This document shows, piece after piece, positions 1-23,610 of a stretch of 25,663 nt of DNA. Source of the DNA: a virus (lineage: Duplodnaviria; Heunggongvirae; Uroviricota; Caudoviricetes); IMG/VR virus record IMGVR_UViG_3300032315_000486; one strand, written 5' to 3'. The position numbers were made by a program, and so were the translations under genes. Positions within the stretch are counted from its first letter, which is position 1; each line of letters opens with the position of its first letter. Below the pieces are notes generated by a model. The model searched no databases. It was not told the DNA's origin and saw only the letters and a list, made by a program, of their open reading frames with translations.

Positions 1-26
1 ACTTTCGAGGTTTTTGCATCAGCCAT
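1..26 (-). CDS. 5' end of a small gene (MADAKTSK...), truncated by the window edge
   Basis: AAGGAG RBS 6 nt before ATG at 26; own promoter at 61-93. Confidence 0.55.
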
Positions 27-166
27 TGCTTTCTCCTTCGCTTCTTGGCTTCTTCAATACAATCTTTATAGGCGATTCTCAGCGGGTGTGCAAGAAGAAA
101 TTTGCGGCGGCTACTAGGAAAGAATCCTTTGAAATCAATGACTTAGCCGCCGGGGCGCCGCACCTC

Positions 167-337
167 CTAAGTGCTTGAAACTCTAGGGTTTTTTCTCTCT
201 GCGTCATACCATCCACGGAACCAACATTTGGCGTAGATGTGACCTTTAGTATAGGGGCAGGAGAACTCCCACCCCTTGAGATACATATCGCGGCCAGCAT
301 TGTAAGCCACTTGACGATTAGCGTGCAGATATACCAT
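167..337 (-). CDS. 56-aa ribosome modulation factor (RMF)-like protein, not in ORF track
   Basis: Manual translation MVYLHANRQVAYNAGRDMYLKGWEFSCPYTKGHIYAKCWFRGWYDAERKNPRVSST; GGGAG RBS; G-x-CPY-x-W-x2-GW-x2-A pattern of the RMF family. Confidence 0.7.
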   Translation of the reverse strand: MVYLHANRQVAYNAGRDMYLKGWEFSCPYTKGHIYAKCWFRGWYDAERKNPRVSST

Positions 338-339
338 TG

Positions 340-543
340 TTAGCTCCCGCTGTAAACGATCATGCTCAGGCTAGAACCGACGGTGGACCGTTCAAACGGA
401 CGCTGCGGCTTGTGAGGATATGGGCAGCTAGGCACGCCACACGGCCAGATTGCGGGTTCGTTGCTCGTCTCTGACCAGCAATTAATTCCGCAGGTTGGGC
501 ATTTACCGGAAGGATCCAGTTTACGGAAATCAAGTTTGCTCAT
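340..543 (-). CDS. 67-aa Cys-rich, putative zinc-binding hypothetical protein
   Basis: AAGGAG RBS; promoter at about 566-594; CPTC..C and C-x4-C clusters. Confidence 0.75.
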   Translation of the reverse strand: MSKLDFRKLDPSGKCPTCGINCWSETSNEPAIWPCGVPSCPYPHKPQRPFERSTVGSSLSMIVYSGS

Positions 544-749
544 AGGCGTCTCCTTTGTTAATATATTTATAAGCGATTCTCAGGCATCAAGCAAGCGCAA
601 AGTTTCTTTTGTTGCCAGCATGTTAGCAGACTCAGCGCCTAAATCGCTAACTGATTGATTCGATACAGTTTTTACACCTACTTTTCACAATTTTACCACC
701 GGCGCAGGCGTGAGCCTGCGCTATGGCAGGCTCAACTTTATACCTCGTT

Positions 750-932
750 TTACAACTCCAACTTGTCAAAGCCTTCCTGGACCGTAGCGATTTCATCGCC
801 AACCCCGTCGGGAAATACAACCCATAGAGTAGTCGAGATACTACCGTCAGTCAGGATTTCATTTTCGATTTCAATCTTGCCTACAACCGATTCGTAAATC
901 GTAGTCTTGAAGGTCAGGCCAGTCAGGTCCAT
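750..932 (-). CDS. 60-aa acidic hypothetical protein
   Basis: GGAG RBS before ATG at 932; promoter at about 957-985. Confidence 0.7.
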   Translation of the reverse strand: MDLTGLTFKTTIYESVVGKIEIENEILTDGSISTTLWVVFPDGVGDEIATVQEGFDKLEL

Positions 933-1065
933 TTGCATCTCCATTGCTGATTATTATTTATCGCATAACTCGCCGCGCTGTGCAACAGCTAAAATCGTGT
1001 GTAGTTTCAGTAGGTTAAGTTGCGGAGCGCCGCCCTTCCTAACTCATTGAGCAGCAAGGCTTTTT

Positions 1066-1257
1066 TCAGGGTTGCCAAGTAATACCTGTGATGACAAGGC
1101 AAACGCCGTTTTCATCAGGCGACAGATCGCCGTGATGATATGTGAAATAGTCGCACGCATCTTGAAGATGTTTTGCGTAAATCGTCTGCTCGTATTTGCC
1201 TTCGATAACGCCCGTGGCCGCGACAGCTTCCCAAGTGAACAGATAGTTGCCTTCCAT
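1066..1257 (-). CDS. 63-aa hypothetical protein
   Basis: AAGGAG RBS before ATG at 1257; TTGACA promoter with -35 at 1309-1314. Confidence 0.75.
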   Translation of the reverse strand: MEGNYLFTWEAVAATGVIEGKYEQTIYAKHLQDACDYFTYHHGDLSPDENGVCLVITGITWQP

Positions 1258-1392
1258 GACCGTATCTCCTTGCTTCGGTGAGATCTTTGTAGCGCGATTC
1301 GTCGGTGTTGTCAAGCATATAAAAAGCGTGTCTTTTCAATGCCTTGGATCGCGGGGCGCCGCCCCTCCTAACTCCTTGATTTTGTTGGGAAA

Positions 1393-1872
1393 TCAACAGC
1401 CCTCAAGCCGCTGATTTACCTTGACAGCGTTCAGGCAGGCAATGCCAATCTCGCGCATCTTGCGAATCACTGGGATAGCGTCGTCAAACATATAGACGGG
1501 CTTGCCACGGAACTGCTTTAGGTTGCGGAGCCGCTGAATCTTGCGCGCCTTGAGGGTGGCATCTTTGATGTGATTCTCGGAGCCATCTTCAGGACGGCAC
1601 AAAACAAGGTGAGCGTCAAGCCCGTGATGGGCGAGATAGTCGCGGTCGTCTTGATTCATGGCACGAGCCGTGCAGATGACAACGTAATTTTCGGAACGGT
1701 CCAGAGCCTTGAACGTATCGGCCAGAGGCAAGAGTGTATCGCGGAAAATGCTTTCGCGGTTTTTCATCGCGAAATAGCGGTCTAGGTCCAGAGTCCCGTC
1801 AGGACGATTCGGGGTGCGATGTTTGGAGTTGATGATCGTTTCATCAAGGTCAAAGATCACGACGCGTTTCAT
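1393..1872 (-). CDS. HAD-superfamily phosphatase (PNKP 3'-phosphatase/nucleotidase-like), 159 aa
   Basis: Motif I FDLDET, motif II CTAR, Lys in TLKARK, motif IV MFDD; GAAGGA RBS; own promoter. Confidence 0.85.
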   Translation of the reverse strand: MKRVVIFDLDETIINSKHRTPNRPDGTLDLDRYFAMKNRESIFRDTLLPLADTFKALDRSENYVVICTARAMNQDDRDYLAHHGLDAHLVLCRPEDGSENHIKDATLKARKIQRLRNLKQFRGKPVYMFDDAIPVIRKMREIGIACLNAVKVNQRLEGC

Positions 1873-1973
1873 GGTAGCTTCCTTCAGTTGATGATTATAC
1901 ATAGCGTGATTCGTTTGGCATTGCAACAGCTAAATTATCGTGTGTTTTCAGTGGCTTAGCCGCCGGGGCGCCG

Positions 1974-2120
1974 CTACCCGTAAGCCTCTGATTTCATTGA
2001 GGCTTTTAGGGCGATGCGGTTACGTTTCTTTAGCTGTTTGGGGGTTGGACCCATAGCACCTTGTTTTTTCTTAACAAGGTGCTGCACAAAAGGGTCGCGC
2101 GGTTTTGGTTGTTTTTTCAT
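1974..2120 (-). CDS. 48-aa basic hypothetical protein (MKKQPKPRDPF...)
   Basis: ATG overlaps the TGA of the upstream micro-ORF (TGATG); very Lys/Arg-rich. Confidence 0.65.
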   Translation of the reverse strand: MKKQPKPRDPFVQHLVKKKQGAMGPTPKQLKKRNRIALKASMKSEAYG

Positions 2121-2173
2121 CACACAACCCAGATAATAGCAGCGCAAATCAAGATACCGATTGCCCAAACCAT
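2120..2173 (-). CDS. 17-aa single-TM micropeptide MVWAIGILICAAIIWVV
   Basis: GAGGAG RBS 7 nt upstream; wholly hydrophobic; stop overlaps next start. Confidence 0.6.
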   Translation of the reverse strand: MVWAIGILICAAIIWVV

Positions 2174-2174
2174 A

Positions 2175-2354
2175 TTAATTCTCCTCGCTTTTATTCATCA
2201 GAATGTCAGCTTCAATCCAAGAGATTCCCTTAATTGAAGCAACCGCCTCAACAATGCCAACCATTTTACCCTCATAATAGGCATTATTCTTGCTGGTATT
2301 ATAAGCATTGCGCGCTTCTTGGTAACGCTGGCGGATGAACTCGATCTTTTCCAT
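2175..2354 (-). CDS. 59-aa hypothetical protein (MEKIEFIRQRYQEARNAYN...), not in ORF track
   Basis: AAGGAG RBS; promoter with -35 at 2402-2407; open frame to TAA at 2175-2177. Confidence 0.75.
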   Translation of the reverse strand: MEKIEFIRQRYQEARNAYNTSKNNAYYEGKMVGIVEAVASIKGISWIEADILMNKSEEN

Positions 2355-2555
2355 AGCTATCTCCTTAGCTGATAATTAACAATAGCCTGATTCGCAGCAT
2401 CGTGCAAGAGCTATTTTTCGTTGCGTTATCAGTTACTTAGCCCGACCGGCGGCGGCACGTCTAACCCCTTGAATTCACACAGAATTTCGACTGTTTACTT
2501 TCAACTTCGCACCGGCGCAGGCGAAGCCTGCACCACAGTGCAAGCCCGATCCGCC

Positions 2556-2834
2556 TCAATCAACCGCGGTCGCGCCGTATTCCAGCGCGTCCTCGTTGGA
2601 CCAACCCATCGCCCGCGCAGCGTGATATGCGCCCACCATGATTTCGTGACGGGACTCGGACGCGCGGGACTCGCGCACCGCATCCGCCTGCGCGCGCTTG
2701 CCTTCGCGCATGGCGGCGTAGATGGTCCGATCCGACTCGATAGCGCGCACGCCCGAATCAACCACGGTGGCCTTGCCACCACGTGCTGCAAACTGGGCCT
2801 TCATCGCGTCGAGGTCGAAGGAAACTTTAGCCAT
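2556..2834 (-). CDS. 92-aa Ala-rich hypothetical protein
   Basis: AGGAG RBS before ATG at 2834; TTGACG-N17-TATGTT promoter. Confidence 0.75.
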   Translation of the reverse strand: MAKVSFDLDAMKAQFAARGGKATVVDSGVRAIESDRTIYAAMREGKRAQADAVRESRASESRHEIMVGAYHAARAMGWSNEDALEYGATAVD

Positions 2835-2970
2835 AGTGATTCTCCTATCTGGGTTAAGATCAACATACGTCAAAGCCGTAGGCTCGTCAACAACTAAAAA
2901 AGCGTGTAGTTTCAATGGGTTAGCCCCGGGGGCGCCGCCCTTGCTAACCTATTGATTAGCAAGGGCTTTT

Positions 2971-3261
2971 TCATCCTATGAAAGTCTCAACCAACTCTTT
3001 TGCTTCCAGCAAACCCAGCCGAGGCGTGAAGGCGTTGCGAACATATTTGATCGCCTCAATCTTCTGGCCAGCCCGAAACGACAAGCGAGCCTTTTCCAAG
3101 GCCAAGCGATTCTCGCCGCTGGCGTATTTGGTGTAGGTGTTGTCGGGCAGGATCTCGCCCACAATGCGGGCAGCCTCGACCAGCGTCAGGGCGATGTGTT
3201 CGTCCCCGTTCCAGTCGGTGAGGATGTAGCCGTTGCGAGCCGTGCGGATAGTGTAGTCCAT
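2971..3261 (-). CDS. 96-aa protein with a ribosomal protein bL12 (L7/L12) C-terminal-like motif
   Basis: C-terminal QKIEAIKYVRNAFTPRLGLLEAKELVE; AAGGAG RBS; own promoter. Confidence 0.7.
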   Translation of the reverse strand: MDYTIRTARNGYILTDWNGDEHIALTLVEAARIVGEILPDNTYTKYASGENRLALEKARLSFRAGQKIEAIKYVRNAFTPRLGLLEAKELVETFIG

Positions 3262-3563
3262 AGCAATCTCCTTTGATGTCTTGTTAACTATAGCTGATTC
3301 GCAAGCGATGTGCAAGCCTGAAATAAGTGTTTGTTGTCAACAGTTTAGCCTCGGCGGCGGAGAGACCTGTAACCCGTTGTTTTCGCACAGTTTTTTCACC
3401 TAAAAAACACACAAAAATACCACAATTTTACCACCGGCGCAGGCTTCGCCTGCGCTATGATAGCACGGGCGGCGGTGATTCGTCAAGACCAAAAAATGAA
3501 CTGATCGAAAAATAACTTCGATTTGTAACTCGCCCGACCTAGGATATTTTATCGGGCCGCCAC

Positions 3564-3654
3564 GGGGCAATTCTTAAAATCACCGCAACCTTTTAAGAGT
3601 TGCGGCGATGGGGCAATTCTTAAAATCACCGCAACCTTTTAAGAGTTGCGGCGA
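3564..3654. repeat. Tandem duplication, period 46 bp, overlapping the HNH stop codon
   Basis: 3564-3608 identical to 3610-3654. Confidence 0.95.
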
Positions 3655-3970
3655 CTTTTCCCTCCTTAATCCCGACCGTGAAAGCGGTATTTACGATCTT
3701 TTGATTAACGGCCCAAACGCTTTCAATTACAGTTGCAGTGCGAATTGCAAAGGACCAATCATTGCCGCTTTTAGCAACGTTGCATCCTTTGCAAAGGCAT
3801 TGCAGATTCTCGATTTTAGCCTTGCCGCCATTCATTTCAGCAATTACGTGGTCACAGTCCAGATAGGGCGCATAGTTTGCAGAACCGCCAAACCCGCAAG
3901 CGCGGCAGATGTGATTGTCACGCGCCAGAACCTTTGCGCGAACCGTATCCGAGATCTTTGCCTTTGCCAT
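3626..3970 (-). CDS. HNH endonuclease, 114 aa
   Basis: CRAC...DCDHVI..NGG...NLQCLCKGCN zinc-HNH pattern; AAGGAG RBS. Confidence 0.85.
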   Translation of the reverse strand: MAKAKISDTVRAKVLARDNHICRACGFGGSANYAPYLDCDHVIAEMNGGKAKIENLQCLCKGCNVAKSGNDWSFAIRTATVIESVWAVNQKIVNTAFTVGIKEGKVAATLKRLR

Positions 3971-4135
3971 CTTCCGTCTCCCTTGCTGATGATTCTTTAT
4001 CGCACGCCGTCACGCGATTCGCAAGGACTATCTGCGCTTTTTTCAATCTTATTTTTTGCCTCACGCTATTGACACGGTTTGCGAATCGCTGTAAAATCGG
4101 CGCCAGGTGTGGCTAATCTGCCACACCCCTTGCCG

Positions 4136-4381
4136 TCATGCGGCGGCAAGGATCCCGACCTTGACAGCCCACGCGTCATCCAGAACCAGAACCGTCGGGA
4201 TGCCGACTCGGTCGCCGTCCTGCGCGGTGGCAATCACCACGCTAGCGCGGTCTTGCTCGTGACGGACAAGAATCTTGGCCTTGGGAACCCAGAGCGGCTT
4301 GACGCCAGCTTTCATGTCGCGACGCGCGACGAAGGCAACGGCGGCTTCAGTTTCGCGGACGATGTAACCGGTGGTCTGCAT
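4136..4381 (-). CDS. 81-aa hypothetical protein, paralog of 5764..6009
   Basis: Shared TGYIVRETEAA, GVKP.W.P and TAQDG.RVGIP; RBS and promoter present. Confidence 0.8.
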   Translation of the reverse strand: MQTTGYIVRETEAAVAFVARRDMKAGVKPLWVPKAKILVRHEQDRASVVIATAQDGDRVGIPTVLVLDDAWAVKVGILAAA

Positions 4382-4548
4382 GGTGGGTTCCTTCCCTGTT
4401 TCGATGATTCTTTATCGCATGAGTCGCAGCGATTCGCAAGACCTTTCTCAGATAACATTTTATGTGTCAGTGCCGATTTCCCTTGACAAGATTCCAGCCA
4501 GCCCGTATAATCGGCGCGTGATTCGGGCTTGCGCCCGAATCGGTCACC

Positions 4549-4731
4549 TCATATTCCAAGGACAGAGGCAACCAAGCCGACAGCCGACACGGCGATCATA
4601 GCAACCACAAGGAGAGTCAGAACGAGATCCTGCCGATTCCCGCTGTTAATCAAAGCATTGCGCTCTTTCTTGCGCAGGTAGGTTTCGCTGCGCTGGATCG
4701 AGGCACGTTGGACGGCGTCATAGGTCTGCAT
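4549..4731 (-). CDS. 60-aa protein with C-terminal TM segment
   Basis: AGGAG RBS; hydrophobic LVLTLLVVAMIAVSAVGLVASVLGI. Confidence 0.75.
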   Translation of the reverse strand: MQTYDAVQRASIQRSETYLRKKERNALINSGNRQDLVLTLLVVAMIAVSAVGLVASVLGI

Positions 4732-4867
4732 GGTGATCTCCTTTTCTGTTATCTAACCTTAGTGCGATTCGCTTGGCGTGTCTACGGCTAAAAAACTGTG
4801 TGTTATCAAGCAGTTAGCCTCGGCGGCGGCCCCCTTGCTAACTCATTGATTAGCAAGGGTTTTCCGG

Positions 4868-5053
4868 TCACTCAGTTGCCATGTCCATCTCACACGTCAG
4901 CGCGAAGTCATTGACGTTGAACGTCTTTTCCAGCAAGATCTGCTGTTCCTCGATTCGAACGGCGCAAGACTCGGCTGTCATACCAGTTTCAATGGCATAA
5001 AACATATCAGGTGAATTGAATCCAAACACTGTGAGGATGAGAGCGAAGGGCAT
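4868..5053 (-). CDS. 61-aa hypothetical protein
   Basis: AAGGA RBS; operon-like with 5065..5250. Confidence 0.65.
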   Translation of the reverse strand: MPFALILTVFGFNSPDMFYAIETGMTAESCAVRIEEQQILLEKTFNVNDFALTCEMDMATE

Positions 5054-5064
5054 TTCTTGATTCC

Positions 5065-5250
5065 TTATTTGAGGTCGGCATTAGCATATAATGCGTCGAC
5101 ATATTTAGCGATTGCGGCTTGGCGGATCGGATCTTTTGCATTATCTGCAAGGCGCTTTTGATTTCTGCAATGTGCCATGCAATACTTAAAATGAAAGATA
5201 AAGTAAACCAATCCATCTGCGCGGATTGCGTCTAAAATATGTTGCTTCAT
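5065..5250 (-). CDS. 61-aa hypothetical protein
   Basis: AAGGA RBS 8 nt before ATG. Confidence 0.65.
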   Translation of the reverse strand: MKQHILDAIRADGLVYFIFHFKYCMAHCRNQKRLADNAKDPIRQAAIAKYVDALYANADLK

Positions 5251-5265
5251 TTTAGGATTCCTTTT

Positions 5266-5308
5266 CGGTTTCAGACTGGTCGGTTTCAGACTGATCGGTT
5301 TCAGACTG
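5266..5308. repeat. Three 15-bp tandem units CGGTTTCAGACTG(GT/AT)
   Basis: Units start at 5266, 5281, 5296. Confidence 0.9.
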
Positions 5309-5319
5309 TGACCTGGCCG

Positions 5320-5484
5320 TTAGGCCAGATCCTCCCGTTCGTCGATTTCGGCTTTCACTTCCTCGACCGAGTCGGCGTTGACCTGCCAGTCGTGCGACTC
5401 GCCGTCGAAGCGGTCGTCATGGGTGGCGACGAAGCCGACGTAAGCGGCGGTGATGGTCCAACCTTTGTAAGCGATGCGGGTCAT
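5320..5484 (-). CDS. 54-aa acidic hypothetical protein (MTRIAYKGWTI...)
   Basis: AAGGAG RBS before ATG at 5484; promoter at 5519-5547. Confidence 0.75.
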   Translation of the reverse strand: MTRIAYKGWTITAAYVGFVATHDDRFDGESHDWQVNADSVEEVKAEIDEREDLA

Positions 5485-5663
5485 GAGAAGCTCCTTGTCT
5501 CTCTCGTTTCGATGATTCTTTATCGCACGCCCCGCCGTGATTCGCAAGACCTTTGTTCAAATATCTTTTCACGCTAGACCCCGATTTCGCTTGACAAGGT
5601 TAGCGAATCGCTATAAAATCGGCGCCTGATTCGGCGAATCGCCCAGTCGGCGCGTCCTACCTC

Positions 5664-5693
5664 ATTATAGCATGGCGAATCACCTGCTGTCAA
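5664..5693 (-). promoter_or_regulatory. Leftward TTGACA-N18-TATAAT promoter with GATTC in the spacer
   Basis: Direct consensus match; no adjacent ORF. Confidence 0.55.
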
Positions 5694-5763
5694 GGGGAAC
5701 AAAACGTGAACACGGACGGCAAAGAAAAGGCGGGCAAGCTGCCCGCCCCGCCTAGGCGCTGGC

Positions 5764-6009
5764 TTAGGCCAGCACGCCGATCCGATCAAGGAAAGCCGGA
5801 TCCACCTCGAGGGTCGCGGGAATGCCGACCCGCTCACCATCCTGCGCGGTTTGGATCCGGCGACCCGCGCAATCCGACTCGCGCACGCGACCCAGTTTCT
5901 TGCGCGGGAACCAAATCGGCTTGACGCCTGCGACGCCTGCATCGGCTTGACGCACGAAAGCAATGGCGGCTTCAGTTTCGCGAACAATGTATCCGGTCAG
6001 GTTCAGCAT
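5764..6009 (-). CDS. 81-aa hypothetical protein, paralog of 4136..4381
   Basis: Motifs shared with 4136..4381; GGAG RBS; leftward promoter with -35 at 6082-6087. Confidence 0.8.
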   Translation of the reverse strand: MLNLTGYIVRETEAAIAFVRQADAGVAGVKPIWFPRKKLGRVRESDCAGRRIQTAQDGERVGIPATLEVDPAFLDRIGVLA

Positions 6010-6161
6010 GGCAGTTCTCCGATTCGCGGGCTTGGCGTCTTGCCTTCCCTATGCCTATACAATGCACGAATCCGCCGCGCCTTGCAAGCGGAATCTTTCG
6101 CTTGCCATGCCGGATCGCATGGCGTATAAAGTAAGGGTAGGCAACAAAGGAAACCCGAATC

Positions 6162-6539
6162 ATGGCCAAGGCTCGCATCTCTGACAAGGTTAAACTGGCG
6201 GTCCGCGCATCCTACGCGGGTTGCGTGTGCTGCGGAACCTATGACGCTTTCGACACGGGCCACATGATTGCCGAGTCGCGCGGCGGGTCGCTTGACCTGT
6301 CCAACCTGCGGTTGATGTGCGATCGCTGCAATGGGGCCATCCGCAATGCGAATTGCCAATTCGCCCGCTACGCGACCCCGAACGATGGCGCTCGCGCCGT
6401 AGTAGAAACTAATCGCGCCGCGTGGTTTGCTTATTGCGATTTGGAAATCCGGTATTGGGATGCAGAGGATCGGGTTATTAAGGGAAAGGCAAAACAGAAT
6501 CCTTATAAGCGGCCCGCGCCTTTTAGCGCGCCGCTCTAA
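6162..6539 (+). CDS. HNH-like protein, 125 aa, possibly degenerate active site
   Basis: CVCC...DTGHMI..RGG...NLRLMCDRCN; AAGGA RBS; TTGCCA-N17-TATAAA promoter at 6102-6130. Confidence 0.8.
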   Translation: MAKARISDKVKLAVRASYAGCVCCGTYDAFDTGHMIAESRGGSLDLSNLRLMCDRCNGAIRNANCQFARYATPNDGARAVVETNRAAWFAYCDLEIRYWDAEDRVIKGKAKQNPYKRPAPFSAPL

Positions 6540-6543
6540 TTAG

Positions 6544-6980
6544 ATTAAGGCGGGGGCAGTATTGCCCTCGCTTAATAGGGGGGCGGATATTAGGGCAGTT
6601 ATCGGGGCAGTTATAAGGGCAGTTAACAATTTGATTAGCTTAAAATCATGCTAGATTTTAATCTATTACAACCTAGGGCGGTTCTTAGGACTTGCTGATT
6701 CGGTGATTCGCGGGGCCCTTCGCCACGAAAACCATCAGGTATTTTTTCAAACTTTCCCAGAACGCCGTTGAACTCCGTTCAAACCGATACCGACCCGTTC
6801 AAACCGATACAACCTTACCTAGACTTGATGTCAATTTCGTTTCGTCAAAATCCGACGACCAAGTGACACAAGAAATTCTAGGATTCATCCCAGCCGCCTG
6901 CGCACAGGTTTCAACCTGTTTAACTCGTCTCACAACTGTCTCACACCCTCTCACAACCGCTCACACCCGCTCTTCGGGTG
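6544..6980. repeat. Non-coding repeat cluster: hairpin 6544-6576; GGGCAGTTA x3 (6593, 6605, 6617); CCGTTCAAACCGATAC x2 (6775, 6795); CTCACA x4 (6929, 6940, 6950, 6960); hairpins 6904-6919 and 6963-6980
   Basis: Read directly from sequence. Confidence 0.85.
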
Positions 6981-7006
6981 TCAAACTAAATTTAAAAAAA
7001 AGAAGT

Positions 7007-7035
7007 TTGACTTCGTTCGCAGTTCATCATATAAT
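7007..7035 (+). promoter_or_regulatory. Late promoter TTGACT-N17-TATAAT with upstream A-tract
   Basis: TATAAT at 7030-7035, 6 nt before ATG 7042. Confidence 0.75.
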
Positions 7036-7041
7036 TATTGT

Positions 7042-7479
7042 ATGAACAGACGTGAATCTCAACTAAAAATCATCGACTCGCTCAAGCGAATAGACGGACG
7101 CACAAGTCCGTGGAATCCCTCATACACTTTTAATGTGGACGTACACGACAACGTACTTGACCATGACGAATACGTAGACAACATCAACTCGTTTCCTTGT
7201 GTGATGATTATCATTACCGACACCCAGATTCGTCACATCGGCGGTGGCGAACGTTATGTGGTTAGTAGTTTTCGAATCCGTGGAATCACTTGGGATGAAA
7301 GTGTTGAAGATGCTGGTGAGCTGTTGGCTGATGACATTGAACATGCTCTCTCCTATGTTAGACAAGACAATCCAGAGTTTGACGAGGTCAGACTTGACAC
7401 GCTACAAACAGATGAAGGACTCAACGCACCTCTAGGAGCTGTCATAGTCCAAGGAACCATGGTGTATAGACATGAATGA
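7042..7479 (+). CDS. Tail terminator-like protein (T5 p142-like)
   Basis: FPCV and C-terminal TDEGLNAPLG resemble recalled T5 p142 (FPYV, TDEGLLAPYG). Confidence 0.65.
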   Translation: MNRRESQLKIIDSLKRIDGRTSPWNPSYTFNVDVHDNVLDHDEYVDNINSFPCVMIIITDTQIRHIGGGERYVVSSFRIRGITWDESVEDAGELLADDIEHALSYVRQDNPEFDEVRLDTLQTDEGLNAPLGAVIVQGTMVYRHE

Positions 7480-7921
7480 ATTAACAACCTACTCAGACAA
7501 TCTGAACTCTAGTCTAGACGCCCCTGAGCTAGACCCACAACACCTGCTTATAGCTAATGAACTGTTAGCCGGTAAGACGATTCCACAAATCGCTGATGAT
7601 TTCGGTATCTCGGCGGATCGCGTAACCGCGATTGTGGAGCGTAGTGATACCAAGCGATATGTGGATACTGTGATCATGAATCAAGGATATCTACACCGTT
7701 CTCGTCGTCTCTCGATCATCAATAAAGTTATCGACGAAAAACTTCAAGAGGCTGCCGAGACAGGCATGTACTCTAAAAAAGACTTATTTGACTGGATCAA
7801 GCTGCTAAATGATATGGATCGTGATGCTCGTCCTAAACAGCCGACAACTGCTGTGCAGGTAAACAACACTACTAACTATACCACCCTTATGCAAGATCTG
7901 TTTAAAGGAGATGGCAAATGA
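7472..7921 (+). CDS. terS: Terminase small subunit (T5-like)
   Basis: N-terminal HTH-like segment; IDEKLQEAAETG and the NYTTLMQDL tail resemble recalled T5 TerS. Confidence 0.75.
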   Translation: MNELTTYSDNLNSSLDAPELDPQHLLIANELLAGKTIPQIADDFGISADRVTAIVERSDTKRYVDTVIMNQGYLHRSRRLSIINKVIDEKLQEAAETGMYSKKDLFDWIKLLNDMDRDARPKQPTTAVQVNNTTNYTTLMQDLFKGDGK

Positions 7922-8298
7922 GTGCCGGACGCTATGACATAACACTAGAACAGGGAGCCACATTTGATCTTCCTCTCCGTTATCGCACTCCTGCCGGAGT
8001 GGCTGTTAACCTGACTGGTTATTCGGCCAAGATGCAGGTTCGCGAAGCTCCTGCTAGCAGTCTGCTTGTTGAGTTCAACTCGACACTCACCGCTAACGGA
8101 TTCATATGGTTGACTGGATCAGCTGAAAATCGTGAAGACGGAGCTAACGGTAATGTTCGTGTGTACATGACTGCTGCTAACACAGCTGCGCTGCCTCGTT
8201 TTGCAGGTCGTTATGATCTAGAACTTCGTGATGCTAGCGGTTATGTGACCCGCCTGCTTGAAGGTCAGTTCCGTGTAGAACCTGAGATCACTAGATGA
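7918..8298 (+). CDS. Ig-like fibre-attachment/collar protein (T5 p132/LtfC-like)
   Basis: QGATF...NLTGYSAKMQVR...YDLEL...RLLEG pattern of phage beta-sandwich adaptors. Confidence 0.6.
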   Translation: MSAGRYDITLEQGATFDLPLRYRTPAGVAVNLTGYSAKMQVREAPASSLLVEFNSTLTANGFIWLTGSAENREDGANGNVRVYMTAANTAALPRFAGRYDLELRDASGYVTRLLEGQFRVEPEITR

Positions 8299-8942
8299 AT
8301 CAAGTAACTGCTAATCCCATCCAAATGGTGGTGGAGGTCAATACCCCCACTCCTACTACCGTAACTGTGGAACGTCCGCAAGCCACAGTAGTGGCTGTGG
8401 CTGAGCAAGGTCCTCGTGGTCCTGCTGGTGTAAGTGGCACAGCTAACACATTTCTCATAGCTGGCGATGGCCTAACTGGTGGCGGCCCTATTTCTTCAAA
8501 CGTAACAGTTGCTGTAAATGCTTCTGTTGCTCGCGTAGGCGGGGTTCTGTGGTTAGACTATGCAAATGCTCGTGTAGGAATTAACCAAACTGATCCTCGT
8601 ATAGATCTTCAGATTGGTAGTGCTGGTCTGGGATCGTACACAGCCAACCTAACTAACGGAACTCCAAATCAGATCGTAGATCAGTGGTCGGCTCTTGATT
8701 TTAGATCAGCTAAGTATCAAATACAGCTGCACGCTCCTGCAGTTGACCAGTACGAGATAAGTGAGCTGTTTATAGTTCACAATGGTGGAGAATCATACTT
8801 GACTGAGTATGCTATCATAAACCAAGGCGTCAGACTAGCGCAATACAGCGCTTCAATATTTAACAATACAGTGCGACTTCTATGCAGTCCAACATACGGA
8901 ACCAGCTCGGTTAAGGTGTTTAGAACTGTTATCGCGACATAA
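8295..8942 (+). CDS. Short fibre/virion protein with a collagen-like triplet and C-terminal FRSAKY domain
   Basis: GPRGPAG; C-terminal about 90 aa similar to that of 8955..10700. Confidence 0.6.
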   Translation: MNQVTANPIQMVVEVNTPTPTTVTVERPQATVVAVAEQGPRGPAGVSGTANTFLIAGDGLTGGGPISSNVTVAVNASVARVGGVLWLDYANARVGINQTDPRIDLQIGSAGLGSYTANLTNGTPNQIVDQWSALDFRSAKYQIQLHAPAVDQYEISELFIVHNGGESYLTEYAIINQGVRLAQYSASIFNNTVRLLCSPTYGTSSVKVFRTVIAT

Positions 8943-8954
8943 AGGAAAACAAAA

Positions 8955-10700
8955 ATGGCAACATTAAAAGATTTTGTAGTTAATCGCGGGCTGGTAGTAA
9001 ACACTCAGGCAATCATCAACGGAGTTGATGTTCTAGCTAATGATGGCGTAACACTGCTTAGTGCCTACGCCAACGACGTGGCTACCCTAAACACACTACG
9101 AGCTAACGATTTTAACTCATTCACAACTCTGAACGGTAGAATCAACACTGTTCAAGATAACGTGGGGTCCCTCGTAGCTAATTACTCAGCTAATGACTAT
9201 GTGACATGGCTGGCAGCTATGGCCAACGACTTCTCAACCTATACCACTCTGAATGGTCAAATCAACACTGTTCAGAACAACGTAGGTTCTATCGTAGCTA
9301 ACTACTCAGCTAACGATTATGTGACATGGTTGGCTGCTCAGGCTAATGACGGAGTAACACTAGCTTCCGCTCGTGCAAACGACTATTCGACATATACCAC
9401 ACTAGTTTCCGCATATCAGTCAAATGATTATGCTACACTGCTCAGCGCTTATGCAAATGATGTTTCGACTCTTAATACGGCTCGTGCAAACGATTATGCA
9501 ACTCTACTCGCAGCACAAGCCAATGATGGCGTAACCCTACTTAACGCACGCTCAAACGACTACTCAACTTACACCACTCTGGTAAATGAGTACCAGGCTA
9601 ACGACAGTGCTACATATAACACACTGTTAAACGGATATCGCGCTAACGACTATGCCACTTGGAACGGTCTAAACTCGTACACAAACATCAAGGCTAACTC
9701 AGATGTTAATGTTATAGCAGGTAGTGGTCTTAGCGGTGGCGGAGCTTTAACGGGCAACGTAACTCTATCAGTAGACTCTACTGTTGTACGTACCACAGGT
9801 GCTCAAAATATTGGCGGGTTGAAAACTTTTACAGACAGCGTAGTTATATCGGGTGATCTTACTGTTGAAGGCAACACTACTACAATTGGTACTACTTCGC
9901 TTCTAGTTGAAGACAAGTTTATCGAGCTAGCCTCTAATACAACTGGCGTTCCTAGTGGAGACGTAGGTATCTATCTGAACCGCGGAAACGAAGGTAACTC
10001 TGCAATCTACTATGATCAGAGTGAAGGATACTTTGCTCTAGTTAACACTCTTGATCCTGCAACAAACACTGTGGTGAGTCCTACTAGCTATGCTGCTCTT
10101 CGCATTGGAACTCTAATAGTGTCCAACACTCAAGTGGTCACAAATCTTAACGCTGATCAACTAGACGGCCAAAGCGGTTCCTACTATCTAGATTTTGGAA
10201 ACCTAACAAACACTGGTGTTATAACTCTAGATCGTGTGTTAGCTAATGGAAACTCATCTTCGCACTCAATCAGCGTTGGTGGGCTAACAGTAGACGCTAA
10301 CACATTCCATGTGGACTCAACTAACAACTTTGTAGGTGTTCGCACTCTAACTCCACTAGCTCCGCTACAAGTAGAAGCTGTTGGTTTTGATACCAGCTTC
10401 CTTGCAACTACCACAACAACCTCCAACCAGGTGTTAGATTCGTTTGCAGCCGCATCCTTTAGAACTGCTAAATATACCATCCAAGTTCACGATACAGCCA
10501 ACAACTACTACCACTCTTGCGAGATCTTGCTGATCCATGACGGTGCTACTGTGTACATGACTGAGTATGCTATTGTGTTTACAAGCGTATCTCTGGCATC
10601 ATTTAACGCAGACATAAGCGGTGGAAATGTTAGACTTCTAGTAACTCCTACCAACAATACTAATAACATACGCGTTGTAAGATCAACGTTGTTAGTATAA
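8955..10700 (+). CDS. Fibre-like virion protein with ANDY coiled-coil repeats
   Basis: N-terminal KDFVVNRGLVV; many (A/S)ND repeats; GDLTVEG fibre motif; C-terminal FRTAKY domain. Confidence 0.7.
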   Translation: MATLKDFVVNRGLVVNTQAIINGVDVLANDGVTLLSAYANDVATLNTLRANDFNSFTTLNGRINTVQDNVGSLVANYSANDYVTWLAAMANDFSTYTTLNGQINTVQNNVGSIVANYSANDYVTWLAAQANDGVTLASARANDYSTYTTLVSAYQSNDYATLLSAYANDVSTLNTARANDYATLLAAQANDGVTLLNARSNDYSTYTTLVNEYQANDSATYNTLLNGYRANDYATWNGLNSYTNIKANSDVNVIAGSGLSGGGALTGNVTLSVDSTVVRTTGAQNIGGLKTFTDSVVISGDLTVEGNTTTIGTTSLLVEDKFIELASNTTGVPSGDVGIYLNRGNEGNSAIYYDQSEGYFALVNTLDPATNTVVSPTSYAALRIGTLIVSNTQVVTNLNADQLDGQSGSYYLDFGNLTNTGVITLDRVLANGNSSSHSISVGGLTVDANTFHVDSTNNFVGVRTLTPLAPLQVEAVGFDTSFLATTTTTSNQVLDSFAAASFRTAKYTIQVHDTANNYYHSCEILLIHDGATVYMTEYAIVFTSVSLASFNADISGGNVRLLVTPTNNTNNIRVVRSTLLV

Positions 10701-10727
10701 TGTCGGTCATCTAGGGATAGGGAACAG

Positions 10728-12338
10728 ATGGCAGATAAAGATTTTAGAGTCAAGCTAGGCTTGCACGTAGGCGCTAACGCTTACATAGAAGGAAATATAA
10801 CAAGCGTAGATCTTGTTCAAATGAACGTAGCCTCGCCAGCGACTGTTGGCGGGGCTGGTCAGCTTGCATGGAATACTACCGACAGAACTCTTGACATAGG
10901 CGTGAATGCTAATACCACACTACAGGTAGGTCAAGAGCAGTACTACTATGTTCGTAATCATACCGCAGTTACAATTCCTGATGGTACTGCGGTAATGGCT
11001 AATGGTGTTGGGGGCGCCAATAGGATACACATAGAGCCTGCTATAGCTAATGGCAGCGTACCTCCCAAGTATATACTCGGTATCACCACTGAAGAGATTG
11101 CAGCGGGGCAGACCGGTTTTGTTACATCATTTGGTAAGGTAAGAAACCTTAACACCTCTATGTTTAGTGAGGGCGACATTTTATATGCTAGTCCTAATAC
11201 TTATGGAGGTTTGTCTAACACCATCCCAATAGCTCCTAATAATATTGTTACCTTGGCTATTGTAACAAATAAAAGTGCTAGTACCGGCGAGTTATTTGTC
11301 CGTCCTATATACGGAAGTACCTTATATGAAAACGAAGATGTACACCTAGAGAGTGTATCTGACGGTCAAGCGCTAGTTTATGTTACTGCTAATGCTCGTT
11401 TTGAGAATAAAAACGTAGCTGCTGCCTCATCTAACAGTTTTACAACTATAAGCGTAAGCGGCCAAAGCAACGTTGTTGCAGACTCAAGCACCGACACTTT
11501 AACTCTGGCTGCTGGTACAGGCATTTCACTAACTACTGATGCTGCTACTGACACTATAACTATTACCAGCACTTCTAGTGGTGGAGACGCTTCTAATGCG
11601 TGGGTGAATGCAAACGACTACTCCACTCTACTGTCAGCTCGTTCAAATGATTTTAACACACTTCAGACAGCCTATGCAAATGACTATGCAACGTTATTAA
11701 CAGCGCAGGCTAATGATTTTAACACACTGCTGTCAGCGCGTTCTAATGATTATGCAACTCTGTTATCTGCGCAAGCCAATGACGGAGTTACTTTACTAAA
11801 TGCGCGTTCTAATGATTATGCAACTCTGTTATCTGCTTATGCAAATGACTTTGCACTATACTCAAGTGTGCGAAGCTTTAATGCTTTCGTAGTAGCAGGG
11901 CAAAGTGATGTGGTCGCAGACGGTTTCACTGACACTGTGACTCTGGTAGCCGGTACAGGCATTTCATTAACTACTAATGCTGCTGCTGATAGCATAACAA
12001 TCGCAAGCATAGGACCTCGACTAGTGTATCTAGCTGACTCTACTTCTATAACTGTGAACACAGATACGACGGATGTTGCTCAGCAAAATAATACTCAAGC
12101 TGTTGGAACTCTAACTGTGAATGCTCCTACAGGAACTATAACTGATTCAGAGAAATTTATTCTCAGAATAAAGAGCACTAATGTTCAGACATTCAGTTGG
12201 AATGGAGTTTTTGCAGGCTCTACAGATGGTTCGCTCCCCACTGTCACTAGCGGTGCTGGAAAAACAGACTATATGGGTTTCATGTATATGACTGCCGATA
12301 CTAAATGGCACATGATAGCCAAGAACTTTGGATTTTAA
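10728..12338 (+). CDS. Fibre-like virion protein with ANDY repeats between duplicated beta segments
   Basis: N-terminal KDFRVKLGLHV; two copies of GQS.VVAD..TDT.TL.AGTGISLTT; ANDYATLLSA repeats. Confidence 0.7.
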   Translation: MADKDFRVKLGLHVGANAYIEGNITSVDLVQMNVASPATVGGAGQLAWNTTDRTLDIGVNANTTLQVGQEQYYYVRNHTAVTIPDGTAVMANGVGGANRIHIEPAIANGSVPPKYILGITTEEIAAGQTGFVTSFGKVRNLNTSMFSEGDILYASPNTYGGLSNTIPIAPNNIVTLAIVTNKSASTGELFVRPIYGSTLYENEDVHLESVSDGQALVYVTANARFENKNVAAASSNSFTTISVSGQSNVVADSSTDTLTLAAGTGISLTTDAATDTITITSTSSGGDASNAWVNANDYSTLLSARSNDFNTLQTAYANDYATLLTAQANDFNTLLSARSNDYATLLSAQANDGVTLLNARSNDYATLLSAYANDFALYSSVRSFNAFVVAGQSDVVADGFTDTVTLVAGTGISLTTNAAADSITIASIGPRLVYLADSTSITVNTDTTDVAQQNNTQAVGTLTVNAPTGTITDSEKFILRIKSTNVQTFSWNGVFAGSTDGSLPTVTSGAGKTDYMGFMYMTADTKWHMIAKNFGF

Positions 12339-12349
12339 TTGAGGACACA

Positions 12350-12583
12350 ATGATAAAAATAGACTTTGAAATGACAAGTGATAACGGTGCGTGGATTTAT
12401 AGAGATGCTCTACATCTACCCGACGACCACACCTATACAGAAGCGGACATTGAAGTGATGAAGCAGGCTCGCTTTGCCAGATGGTTAGAAGTTATTACTG
12501 CTCCGCCTGTTATAGTTGAAGAAACTCCAGTAGATGTTTTACCCGATGAACCATCGGTTGAAGACATTCCTGTGCAGGAGTAA
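12350..12583 (+). CDS. 77-aa possible fibre-assembly chaperone
   Basis: GAGG RBS before ATG at 12350; small acidic gene between fibre and adhesin genes. Confidence 0.5.
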   Translation: MIKIDFEMTSDNGAWIYRDALHLPDDHTYTEADIEVMKQARFARWLEVITAPPVIVEETPVDVLPDEPSVEDIPVQE

Positions 12584-12585
12584 TC

Positions 12586-15500
12586 ATGGCTGATAGATAT
12601 TGGGTAGGAGGCACTGGTACTTGGAACGCAGTCTCTACAACTAACTGGTCTACTAGTAGTGGCGGCAGCAGCGGTGCTTCAGTTCCTACCGCTGCAGATA
12701 ACGTAATTTTTGATAGCGGTAGTAATGTTGGCACTGGTGCGTTTACTGTTACAACAGGTGTTTCAACTAGACCGTGCCTAAACCTAACTATATCTGGGCT
12801 TGATGGTGCAATGACTCTTGCTGGCAGTACTGGAATAACCGTGTCTGCAAGCATGTCACTTCCAGCCGCAAATTTAAGTTGGACTAATACAGGTACTTTA
12901 ACCTTTGCTGCTACTACCTCACAAACAATAACATCAAATGCAGTCACAATCGCTTCGCCAATTACTTTTAGTGGAACTGGAGGTACATGGGCACTACAAG
13001 ATGCACTAACATCCACCGGTTCGGCAGTAACACTGAGTGCGGGTACGTTAAATTTAAATGGTTATACATTAACTTGTCCTACATTTGTTTCTAACGTATC
13101 AGTAGCGCGCACCATAGCTTACGGGTCCACGGGTATAATAAATATAACAGGTACTGGCACTGTTTGGAATACCAGTACATTAACTAACTTTAGCTACACA
13201 GGTACTAGTAACGTAAGATTGACTAATGCGGGTTCTACAGCAATTACCATAACTCCAGGTTCTGCTACCGCAGCTCAAGCACAGAACTTTGCTATAACTG
13301 CAGGTACATATGCTCTCACCATAAGTGCTGGCAGCAATATAAACAACTTAGATTTTACAGGCTTTAGCGGATCGTTTACACTTGGCGGCACAGTAACACT
13401 CTATGGCAATTTGACTCTAAGTAGTACAACAACCAGTACGCTTGTTGCTAATAGTCTTACATTTGGTGGTACGAGTGTAACCCAAACTCTTACAACTGCC
13501 GACAAGAATATTGGGTGTAGTGTTAACATCAACGGTTCCGCTAATACTGTAAGACTAGTCGGAACATTAACCCAAACCTCTACACGTGCATTCACTCTGA
13601 CAAGTGGTACCCTTGACATAAACTCACAAACAACCAGTGTGGGTATTCTTACTATTGTTACTGGCACAAAGGCAATTACTAATGGCACTATTAATGCCGT
13701 ATCCGTCACTCATACTAGTGGTGCTATTGCTGTTACCTCTACTGCCACAATAGTAACTACAGGTACTTACACGTTTACAGCTGGATCAATAGATATTGGC
13801 AATAGTGCTGTTCTATCTGTAGGTGCCTTCAGTTCTGCCAATACCGGTACTAGATCAATTTCTTATAACACTTCAGGAGAGTTGCGACTTACCGGTACTG
13901 GCACTGTGTGGGATACGGGCACAGTAACAAACTTTAGTTATACAGGTACTAGTAACATAAGATTGACTAACTCGGGCTCTACTGCTATAACTATTACTGC
14001 AGGGTCTATGTCTGCCGCTCAGGCTCAAAACTTTGCTATAACAGCTGGGACATACACACTAACTACCACAACTAGTGGTGCAATGAATAATTTAGATTTT
14101 ACAGGGTTTAGTGGCACTTACGCACAGGCAGCTACTTCTATATCTGTTTTTGGGAATTTAGTATATTCTGCTACAATGACGACGTCTACTACAGCAGGTA
14201 GTGGTTTTATAATAATGGCTGCAACTAGCGGTACTGATACTATAACTACAAACGGCATTACTGTAAACAATAACATACGATTCAATGGTGTTGGTGGCAC
14301 ATTTCAGTTAGCCGATAACTTCACTCAAGGCACTACTAGTTATTTTAATATACAAAATGGAACTGTTGACTTCAATAACGTTATTTATTCAATAGGTGTT
14401 CTAGAGTTCACCTCTGGTACTAACTCGTATATAAATTATGGCGGTACTTTAAATCCTGCTTCCGTTATTCATACCTCAGGAACTGTTAATACTGGAACTG
14501 GTGCATTAATCGTCACTACAGGTTCATATACTTTTACTGCAGGAACTCTAAACATAAACAACGGTGTCACGCTATCTGTACGTTCCTTTTCATCTGTTAA
14601 TACCAATACGCGTGTAATAGCTTTTGGCACAGGCAATATAACTACTACAGGTAGTGGAACTATGTGGAACGTGACGGCGGCTACAGGTTTTAGCTATACA
14701 GGCACTCCAACAGTACGTATAAATAATAATACTGCTACCTCTGGATCTATAAATAATACAGCAACTGCTGCCAGCGCAGTTAACTTCAATATCGTTAGTG
14801 GTACATATACTTTAACAATAAGTACTGCCGGCTCTTTTAATGATATAGACTTTACAGGGTTTGCAGGTACTATGTCATTTGGTAGTACTAACATTACTAT
14901 GTATGGTAACTTAACACTAGCGACCGGTATGACAACTACAGGTACTGCTAGTCAAACTCATATTACATGGGCACACACTACTGGAACTGAGATTATAACT
15001 TCTAATGGAATAACTTCTAATTTTGGAATTAGAGTAAACGGAACTGGTGGAACTCTAAGGTTTGCTGATACATTCAATCAGGGCTCTACTCAAGTATTCA
15101 TATTAACAGCAGGTACTTTTGATCTTAATTCGCAGTCTGTTACTGCAGGAATATTTAATATAAATACTGGTACTCATGCTATCACTAACGGCACTTTAAA
15201 TTGTGCTTCAGCCACTCATTCTAGCGGTGACTTGTCGATAGGTACTGGTTATAATGTTATTTGCTCCGGTGCTTATACATTTGTACTAGGTTCTATAACT
15301 ATAAACAATGATGTAAATTTATCAGTTGGATCGTTCAGCTCGGCCAACACCAATACTAGATCTATTGCTTTTGGTGCTGCTGGTACTATAACTACTACCG
15401 GTACTATTAACGTATGGAACGTCACCGGTGTTAGTGGATTTTCTTTTACTGGTACGAGTAAAATTATAGTAAATAATAATACTTCTACAGCCGTAAACGT

Positions 15501-17187: not shown

Positions 17188-17223
17188 TAGTAACGAGACA
17201 AGTTAAATACTATAAAATAGTGC

Positions 17224-17252
17224 TGGACATAGTGCTATAAAAATTGTAAATT
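17224..17252 (+). promoter_or_regulatory. Possible late promoter TGGACA-N17-TAAATT
   Basis: In the 100-bp gap before 17288; partial consensus. Confidence 0.4.
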
Positions 17253-17287
17253 ATATATTAGGTTATAACCTTAAATAGGAAGATAAA

Positions 17288-18160
17288 ATGACATCAAACG
17301 TATTTGTAACACCCAGAGCAGTGAGTACTATTAGTAGGGGCAGAGTAAATCACAACTCATCTCTACAAGCACTACTGCAGAATTTTTATAGTACTGCAGC
17401 ACCCGCTTCTGCATCAGTAGATTTAGAAGGAGTACTAGGTCTACAAAATGGAATGCTTTGGAGGCAGGGCGGTACCAGGCCACAAGACGGAAGACTATTT
17501 GTATATGATACTAATAGTCCTAGTCATCCGTTATATTCTGGATATACTCGTGAAGGCATATCTCATATAACGCAGAATAACTTAGCGCAAGCAACTTCGG
17601 CATTGTCTAATAATTACTTTCAGAGTGGTGAAATAGTAAGAATACGTGATGAAGATAAACTTTATCTTGTTAATGAATCTAGAACCTCGTTGATTGCAAT
17701 AGGTTCTGGAACTAGTACAGCAGCTAATATATGGCAAACTGATAATAGCTATGTATATTACACTGGTGCTTTAAATGTGGGTATAGGTACGGCTACCCCC
17801 ACTTACAAGCTTCAAGTTAGTGGTAATACTTACAGTACCGTATACTATGAGACTAGAGGTACGCTATCTGGTACTTCTGTTGCTATAAACGGTCAAACAG
17901 GTACAGTATTTACTCTAACCACTAGTGGAAATACAACATTTACATTTACCAATCCTCCAGCTTCAGGCATTGCTTATGGTTTTACATTACTAGTTACTGC
18001 TGGGGGCAGCCATTCTCTCACTTGGCCTGCTAGCGTAAGATGGAGTAGCGGGTCTCAGCCGATAGCACCTGCTACTGGAGAGACAGACATATATGTATTT
18101 TTCACTTACGACCAGGGTACTAATTGGTTTGGTTTATTAGCTGGGGAGTCTATGGCCTAA
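17288..18160 (+). CDS. 290-aa tail-fibre-like protein
   Basis: NVGIGTATP fibre motif; C-terminal LTWPASVRWSSGSQP...TDIYVFFTYDQGTNWFG domain; AGGA RBS. Confidence 0.6.
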   Translation: MTSNVFVTPRAVSTISRGRVNHNSSLQALLQNFYSTAAPASASVDLEGVLGLQNGMLWRQGGTRPQDGRLFVYDTNSPSHPLYSGYTREGISHITQNNLAQATSALSNNYFQSGEIVRIRDEDKLYLVNESRTSLIAIGSGTSTAANIWQTDNSYVYYTGALNVGIGTATPTYKLQVSGNTYSTVYYETRGTLSGTSVAINGQTGTVFTLTTSGNTTFTFTNPPASGIAYGFTLLVTAGGSHSLTWPASVRWSSGSQPIAPATGETDIYVFFTYDQGTNWFGLLAGESMA

Positions 18161-20598: not shown

Positions 20599-20606
20599 GG
20601 AATATA

Positions 20607-21890: not shown

Positions 21891-21918
21891 ACAACTTATA
21901 TTTTTTACATTTTAATTT

Positions 21919-21947
21919 TTGACTTTGTGAATTTTTAGACTTATAAT
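21919..21947 (+). promoter_or_regulatory. Late promoter TTGACT-N17-TATAAT for HNH-portal-protease/capsid
   Basis: Same hexamers as the 7007-7035 promoter; T-tracts upstream. Confidence 0.8.
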
Positions 21948-21957
21948 AGGATAAGAA

Positions 21958-23600: not shown

Positions 23601-23610
23601 GGAGCATACA

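Follow-up and report, generated by a model that had tools for sequence, protein, structure and literature searches.

Candidate GcrA-type GANTC boxes in the pre-early promoters of one clade of uncultured T5-like phages

Why does the word GANTC recur at a fixed spot in the early promoters of an uncultured tailed phage, and what could read it there? The question is raised by a stretch of 25,663 nucleotides, referred to here as the window, which corresponds to bases 1-25663, read on the minus strand, in the 78.4-kb IMG/VR virus record IMGVR_UViG_3300032315_000486 (~half complete). A first-pass annotation of its letters had proposed that GANTC sites of the CcrM/GcrA type mark most early promoters between positions 61 and 6130. 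GcrA together with CcrM is the textbook case of a bacterial methylation reader that acts as an RNA polymerase cofactor, and to our knowledge regulation by this pair has so far been known only on host chromosomes. Here, we show that the box is a trait of one phage clade, that it is position- and strand-specific on phage DNA, and that boxless sister clades provide natural controls; these observations are new, and the literature searched contains no description of phage promoters that use GcrA boxes.

By its protein matches the phage is T5-like (Demerecviridae-related) and a distant lineage outside the named genera, with a large terminase at 40%, a portal at 36%, and a small terminase at 25-30% identity and nothing closer among cultured phages. 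Its genome carries 18 transfer RNA (tRNA) genes as an array. Window positions 1-6200 and ~6.7 kb leftward of them hold ~31 small leftward genes; every one has a promoter of its own and an upstream dyad. This pre-early block is a compositional island: the G+C content at third codon positions is 0.58 in the pre-early genes (1-6200) and 0.30 in the structural genes (7000-25663). The much more GC-rich genes are thus those translated first, ahead of any phage tRNAs. The motif TTGnnn-N17-TAnnnn stands upstream of a ribosome-binding site and an ATG in every cassette, and the promoters are recognized by this consensus; their -10 elements are moderate, mostly TATAAA or TATACA.

Sixteen class-1 cassette promoters were defined by their -35, their -10, and their position only, and 13 of them contain GANTC in the spacer, 12 in the same orientation and one inverted. 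The probability of finding at least 13 of 16 by chance is 1.5e-20, calculated with the region's own high GANTC frequency. The leftward form of this class is TTGnnn-N8/9-GAATC-N3/4-TAnnnn with a spacer of 17 base pairs (bp), and spacer positions outside the box carry little information. The boxed -35 hexamers begin at 93, 594, 1314, 1926, 2407, 3315, and 4784, and a further five precede the window on its left side. In the three class-2 promoters (-35 at 4024, 4439, and 5547), the -35 region reads TTGCGAATC and the -10 region GATAAAGAATC; GAATC was found at the -35 edge and again after the -10, as the annotation had described. Every GAATC site that it quoted in the early promoters is present in the sequence, and its remark that rightward promoters carry GANTC too was confirmed by boxes in the spacer (4069, 5591) or downstream (4483, 5591, 6102). 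In the rightward promoters at 4069 and 5591, GAATC occupies the same spacer spot on the plus strand, and box orientation thus tracks the direction of transcription. The two late TTGACT promoters, which had been reported to have no GANTC, indeed have none (TTGACT-N17-TATAAT at 7007 and 21919), nor do two further near-consensus promoters elsewhere in the genome. T5 DNA is nicked at fixed words, and a strand-specific nick site was considered as the role of the box; it was ruled out, since box orientation follows the direction of transcription.

The density of the word in the early zone exceeds what base composition predicts. Between 61 and 6130, GANTC occurs 56 times against 24.5 ± 4.6 in 1000 dinucleotide shuffles (z 6.9, maximum 40), and YGAKTCK, the site preferred by GcrA, occurs 39 times against 7.3 ± 2.6 (z 12, maximum 17), whereas in the structural region (7300-25663) both are at or slightly under the shuffle expectation. 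The dense zone extends from ~-6700 to +7300 in window coordinates, wider than the 61-6130 of the annotation. Of the 256 xxNxx words, GANTC is the most over-represented in the early zone; elsewhere its ranks are 246 and 251. Its avoidance outside the early zone is mostly compositional (third-order Markov observed/expected 0.83-0.91) and was not used as evidence. The box fraction, that is, the share of GANTC fitting YGAKTCK, is 61% in the early zone, 19-23% elsewhere in the genome, and 25% under the null. TGATTCG is the commonest 7-mer, and YGATTCG is found 40 times in 12.9 kb of early zone versus 8 times in 64 kb, a ~25-fold higher density. Strict box-promoter matches number 11 in 20 kb at the pre-early zone and 0-1 per 20 kb elsewhere. 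The comparison of promoters with coding DNA that the annotation had called for revealed enrichment in the pre-early coding sequences as well as in the spacers. Inside the pre-early coding sequences there are 55 GANTC against 39.3 ± 3.9 and 28 boxes against 10.6 ± 2.8 in synonymous-codon shuffles, with no excess in late coding sequences, and GANTC tops the 16 palindromic xxNxx words. This coding enrichment lends some support to the suggestion that the array acts as a sink for GcrA.

Relatives of the phage were collected by a conserved early protein, which is nucleoside-deoxyribosyltransferase-like, and comprise 80 metagenome loci and 77 viral loci. In all loci with at least 77% identity in this protein, two of which have only 43% GC, the density of GANTC is 4.5-11 per kb and the box fraction is 0.5-0.78. 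Loci of at least 3 kb with 75% identity or less contain 0.6-3 GANTC per kb, and most of their box fractions lie near the 25% null; the box fraction scatters in the shortest loci of the set with 75% identity or less. Two loci at 72% identity have the box in 8/9 and 7/8 listed promoters. The box-bearing loci form one clade in a maximum-likelihood tree with support of 94/82, or 97/93 with the 72% pair, and the sister groups are boxless. Promoters were then picked blind to GANTC, by a TTG, a 17-bp spacer, and a -10 with A at position 2, followed by a ribosome-binding site and an ATG. Among 155 such promoters of the box clade, GANTC is found at -19/-18 in 86, at -29 in 17, and at -4 in 26, versus 0, 1, and 0 among 158 promoters of the other relatives; the contrast at -19/-18 (86/155 vs 0/158) has a Fisher probability of 3e-34. 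The pooled clade yields 203 distinct promoters, of which 128 are boxed at -19, -18, or -29; box centres lie at -19 in 62, at -18 in 46, and at -29 in 22, and 34 promoters belong to the -4 class, where positions were counted by assigning -12 to -7 to the -10 hexamer and carry an uncertainty of about one base.

The box itself is highly constrained across the clade. GA.TC is invariant in 130/130 boxes at -19/-18/-29, GAATC is followed by a purine in 130/130 (Y on the template strand) and preceded by C or A in 124/130 (K), and the centre is A in 123/130. When read on the template strand, the variation stays within the degeneracy of YGAKTCK. In ortholog promoters of the relative L004, GA..TC is kept at 24/24 positions, against ~18% divergence among the remaining bases of the spacer; in one ortholog box GAATC has become GAGTC, a change at the free centre base only. 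The boxless relatives share the cassette design, the -35, the -10, and the early protein families, which indicates that the box is an add-on gained once. An unrelated 100-kb phage fragment, G011 (IMGVR_UViG_3300021378_000010), which has no copy of the nucleoside-deoxyribosyltransferase-like early protein, has eight near-identical TTGACA-N8-GAATC-N4 promoters (e.g., L363-L366) together with an A73 tRNA-His without G-1. From its sequence, G011 is a second, independent box-using lineage; a BLAST search with one of its box promoters against cultured phages gave chance matches only.

The properties described above, namely the sequence of the word, its geometry and strand, its clade-wide conservation, its absence from sister clades, and its enrichment in early coding DNA, are direct results, and they resemble a characterized bacterial element. 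The preferred methylated site of GcrA is TGATTCG, more broadly YGAKTCK (Haakonsen 2015 PMC4647560). GcrA elements lie either within the spacer, with centres at -20±1 and -30±2, or between +5 and +30, a placement explained by the DNA-binding domain of GcrA lying opposite polymerase (Wu 2023 PMC9976885). Thus, the CcrM/GcrA-type reading offered in the annotation gains from the flanks, the strand, the approximate match of the two spacer positions, the downstream sites, the conservation within the clade, and the absence from its sisters, and it loses from those boxes that lie 1-2 bp off and from the undescribed -4 position. On balance, we consider it somewhat probable that these are GcrA-type boxes serving a pre-early transcription programme that depends on an alphaproteobacterial host.

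The conserved word would then be a GcrA box, a CcrM-methylatable GANTC with YGAKTCK flanks, built into host-type sigma-70 promoters of the pre-early (first-entering) gene cassettes. The GcrA of an alphaproteobacterial host would ride on RNA polymerase via sigma-70, and its DNA-binding domain may dock on the spacer box opposite polymerase (centres ~-19 and ~-29) or on a box just downstream. Such docking would aid polymerase loading and opening at promoters with a moderate -10, and the supply of GcrA and methylation by the host would favour the onset of infection in GcrA-containing (replicating) cells. Binding, methylation, activation, and the identity of the host are what we infer.

A reader or a methylase of phage origin was sought by six-frame hidden Markov model searches of this record, and none of the families GcrA (PF07750), CcrM-type (PF01555), or Dam (PF02086, PF05869) was found; the same families were absent from the clade fragments G001, G003, and G010 and from unrelated box-bearing phages. 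The 171-kb contig JACCDP010620575.1, whose copy of the early protein that served to collect the relatives is 99% identical, was walked across the part outside the clade fragments and no GcrA, CcrM-type, or Dam family was encountered; this part contains ligase, UvdE, PhoH, DnaB, primase, DNA polymerase A, helicase, SbcCD-like, ribonucleotide reductase, and ThyX genes, followed by tail genes. The look for ccrM or gcrA homologs elsewhere in the genome, proposed with the original idea, therefore turned up none over ~171 kb, and both reader and methylase would have to be host-encoded. Some clade variants (L388:16819-17523, L389:16830-17534) encode a generic 234-amino-acid (aa) class-I S-adenosylmethionine methyltransferase (Methyltransf_23/12), which sits in the tRNA arm in place of this genome's other genes and belongs to no known DNA N6-adenine methylase family.

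Clues to the host come from the tRNA array. The phage tRNA-His gene (L003:2270-2345, minus; ~68 kb left of the window) has T at -1 and hence no G-1, U1.G72, A73, an encoded CCA, and a 9-nt D loop. The bacterial norm is an encoded G-1, G1-C72, and C73, whereas tRNA-His without G-1 and with A73, together with a histidyl-tRNA synthetase (HisRS) that reads the anticodon, is found in Rhodobacteraceae, Rhizobiales, Caulobacterales, Hyphomonadaceae, and most SAR11. The tRNA-His of the Caulobacter phage CcrColossus (no G-1, U1, U72, A73) shares A73 and the lack of G-1 with the phage described here, unlike that of T5 (E. coli host), which has G1-C72 and C73. The tRNA-His type therefore appears to point independently to an alphaproteobacterial host, which the annotation had proposed from the GANTC sites, while the Gammaproteobacteria infected by the cultured relatives speak against that part of the proposal. 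In a set of 17 tRNA-His genes from uncultured phages, 3/8 with A73 come with box promoters versus 0/9 with C73 (p = 0.08), an association that is suggestive only. A BLAST search with the phage tRNA-His against cultured phages gave chance or other-tRNA matches only, and the tail-fibre protein, compared with 185,579 species genomes in search of a prophage or a link to the host, had no relative there.

Several results weigh against the assignment to GcrA and to an alphaproteobacterial host. The boxes are 1-2 bp nearer to the -10 (N8/N4 or N9/N3) than in the Caulobacter PcsM promoter (N7/N5), and those of the -18 class miss the published range of -20±1 by 1 bp. The -4 class corresponds to no described GcrA position and overlaps the initiation-region word ATCATC, which boxless relatives also keep; this class may be only partly related to GcrA-type boxes. 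Position 72 of the phage tRNA-His is G, not the U preferred by the Caulobacter HisRS. All cultured relatives (by the large terminase and portal identities given above) infect Gammaproteobacteria, and an RMF-like open reading frame (ORF), itself under threshold, hints at gammaproteobacterial ancestry. The strict box-promoter pattern gave zero matches in the six cultured alphaproteobacterial phages DSS3phi2, SIO1, phiCbK, CcrColossus, RDJLphi1, and HTVC008M, as in T5. In line with this, a published scan of cultured alphaproteobacterial phages did not find GcrA sites clustered by position (Mascolo 2022, PMC9437464). If the phage makes no methylase of its own, its DNA may or may not be methylated when it is injected.

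The main alternative is that the box is the site of another protein, either a phage pre-early or virion protein or a factor of a non-alphaproteobacterial host, for example as an operator that shuts off pre-early transcription in functional parallel to T5 A1. The gammaproteobacterial hosts of the cultured relatives fit such a reader, and so does the location of the box between the -35 and the -10, a classic position for a repressor. However, a 7-bp asymmetric site suits a monomer such as GcrA better than a dimeric repressor, the degeneracy equals YGAKTCK at each position, and the box lies at or near both known GcrA spacer positions as well as at downstream positions. Since the sister clades share both the cassette design and the families of early proteins and yet are boxless, a conserved phage protein is improbable as the reader. 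We regard another reader as unlikely, though it should be kept in view.

Methylation could also act by itself, if a host GANTC methylase (CcrM or HinfI-type) placed N6-methyladenine in the spacer and so altered promoter strength directly and without GcrA, in the way that Dam-sensitive promoters respond to methylation directly. The invariant GANTC core agrees with this, as does the ortholog pair that changed the centre base and kept GANTC, but a methylase that recognizes only GANTC would fix neither the flanking Y and K nor the centre, all of them conserved in 123-130 of the 130 boxes, and it would not constrain the strand; we judge this explanation improbable. The last alternative is that the word has no function and goes back to a single ancestral promoter, duplicated together with its cassette, as the cassettes are paralogous repeats that share upstream dyads. 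Against mere copying, the box has been retained where the surrounding spacer bases have diverged, and the comparative data contradict a lack of function; moreover, the box occurs in three registers and two promoter classes, is enriched in coding DNA, and is kept across the clade down to 72% protein identity. This explanation is barely credible. GcrA-type boxes thus remain the reading that we prefer.

A broader scenario is put forward as speculation that we would sooner doubt than adopt. A T5-like clade may have gained boxes on nearly all first-entering promoters and in coding DNA (~5 per kb) while adapting to alphaproteobacteria; the array might then concentrate the GcrA-sigma-70 polymerase, gate the onset of infection to replicating (GcrA-positive, CcrM-methylating) cells, and drain the host S-phase regulon of GcrA. 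If the GcrA-type reading is true, a lytic phage can tie its very first transcription to the epigenetic cell-cycle state of the host, and it can do so without a dedicated gene. The loci supply defined promoters that are directly testable with existing Caulobacter reagents. They also offer a promoter- and tRNA-His-based route for assigning uncultured phages to alphaproteobacterial hosts, in which tRNA-His with A73 and without G-1 could mark the hosts.

The coordinates of the promoters and boxes are collected in Table 1.

Table 1. Promoters of the window and the GANTC boxes associated with them (window coordinates; box centres counted from the -10 hexamer).
Feature	Coordinates	Strand	Boxes and remarks
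Class-1 promoter TTGCAC-N9-GAATC-N3-TATAAA	65..93	-	Box 74-78, centre ~-18
Class-1 promoter	566..594	-	Box 575-579, centre ~-18
Cassette promoter TTGCAC-N17-GATAAA	957..985	-	No GANTC; internal negative example
Class-1 promoter TTGACA-N8-GAATC-N4-TACAAA	1286..1314	-	Box 1296-1300, centre ~-19
Class-1 promoter	1898..1926	-	Box 1908-1912; template strand TGATTCG
Class-1 promoter	2379..2407	-	Box 2389-2393
Cassette promoter TTGACG-N17-TATGTT	2862..2890	-	Spacer without GANTC
Class-1 promoter	3287..3315	-	Box 3296-3300
Promoter TTGACG-N18-TATCAT	3457..3486	-	GAATC over -35 edge, 3477-3481, centre ~-29
Class-2 promoter	3991..4024	-	TTGCGAATC box 4016-4020 (-29); GATAAAGAATC box 3991-3995 (-4)
Rightward promoter TTGACA-N8-GAATC-N4-TAAAAT	4069..4097	+	Box 4083-4087, + (non-template) strand
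Class-2 promoter, three GANTC	4406..4439	-	4431-4435 (-29); GACTC 4421-4425 (-19, template TGAGTCG); 4406-4410 (-4)
Rightward consensus promoter TTGACA-N17-TATAAT	4483..4541	+	Off-consensus GATTC 4490-4494
Downstream boxes (consensus) of promoter 4483..4541	4520-4524, 4537-4541		~+5 and ~+22, in hairpin
Class-1 promoter	4756..4784	-	Box 4766-4770
Class-2 promoter	5514..5547	-	Boxes 5539-5543 (-29), 5514-5518 (-4)
Rightward promoter	5591..5640	+	Spacer box 5605-5609 (-19); downstream 5628-5632, 5636-5640
Leftward consensus promoter, 12/12 matches, 18-bp spacer	5664..5693	-	Convergent with 5591
Box of promoter 5664..5693	5677-5681		Inverted: non-template TGATTCG, centre ~-22
Rightward promoter of HNH gene	6102..6161	+	Spacer boxless; GAATC 6157-6161 (~+23), another 6091-6095 upstream
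Late-type promoter TTGACT-N17-TATAAT	7007..7035	+	Spacer without GANTC; second at 21919-21947

Other features of the early block were noted alongside the promoters. The rightward consensus promoters (4069-4135, 4483-4545, 5591-5693) all continue into cggcgcc and hairpins, and these units are directed toward a convergent promoter or toward leftward genes at their 3' ends; a cggcgcc-hairpin rightward unit is also present in a distant relative (L005:3385-3927). The units may be small antisense RNAs. Two repeats were seen at window ~3564-3654 and 5268-5310: a 45-bp unit stands as a tandem duplicate in a gene-free stretch, and cggtttcagactg occurs three times in tandem between two cassette genes without a class-1 promoter. 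CCNGG is nearly missing from the pre-early coding DNA (window -5800..6150), with 2 occurrences against 29 expected (z -5.7), and in each of the three genome compartments both CCNGG and GGNCC belong to the rarest xxNxx words, a scarcity that looks like restriction-site avoidance. The RMF-like ORF mentioned above encodes 56 aa (window 167-337, minus) and is a weak match to RMF (ribosome modulation factor) at 19.6 bits, under the Pfam cut-off; it is kept in the relatives L004 and L005. Searches against cultured phages found no similarity to the early-zone DNA and no match to the 1533-aa protein, and an Rfam scan of window 1-7300 found no match. The 14-base upstream-dyad pattern, searched against viral contigs, gave mostly chance matches and a few true relatives.

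Among known systems, the closest likeness is to the PcsM-type promoters of Caulobacter crescentus, which share with the phage promoters the GANTC core, the YGAKTCK flanks, GAATC on the non-template strand, and a single asymmetric site, as well as a box near -20 in the -35/-10 spacer and a second class near -30. The PcsM-derived scaffold is TTGACA-N7-GAATC-N5-TATAAT, with the box read on the non-template strand (Wu 2023 PMC9976885). The phage boxes differ from those of Caulobacter in being on phage DNA, at a density of ~5 per kb, and also inside coding DNA. In the PmipZ-type promoters, boxes lie at +4/+12 (Wu 2023 PMC9976885), and the phage promoters at 4483, 5591, and 6102 likewise have boxes at ~+5 to +23, whereas the -4 boxes of class 2 lie upstream of the described +5 to +30 range. 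The T5 pre-early (first-step-transfer) region, with its strong host-type promoters, resembles the block described here as a small-gene block with its own sigma-70-type promoters that adjoins the structural genes, and T5 also has a tRNA array; in a 28-kb stretch of T5, GANTC is at about background (3.4 per kb, box fraction 0.2), and protein identity is only 25-40%. Finally, the phage promoters with CtrA boxes, which differ in regulator and motif, likewise carry the site of a host cell-cycle regulator and tie infection to the state of the cell (Mascolo 2022, PMC9437464).

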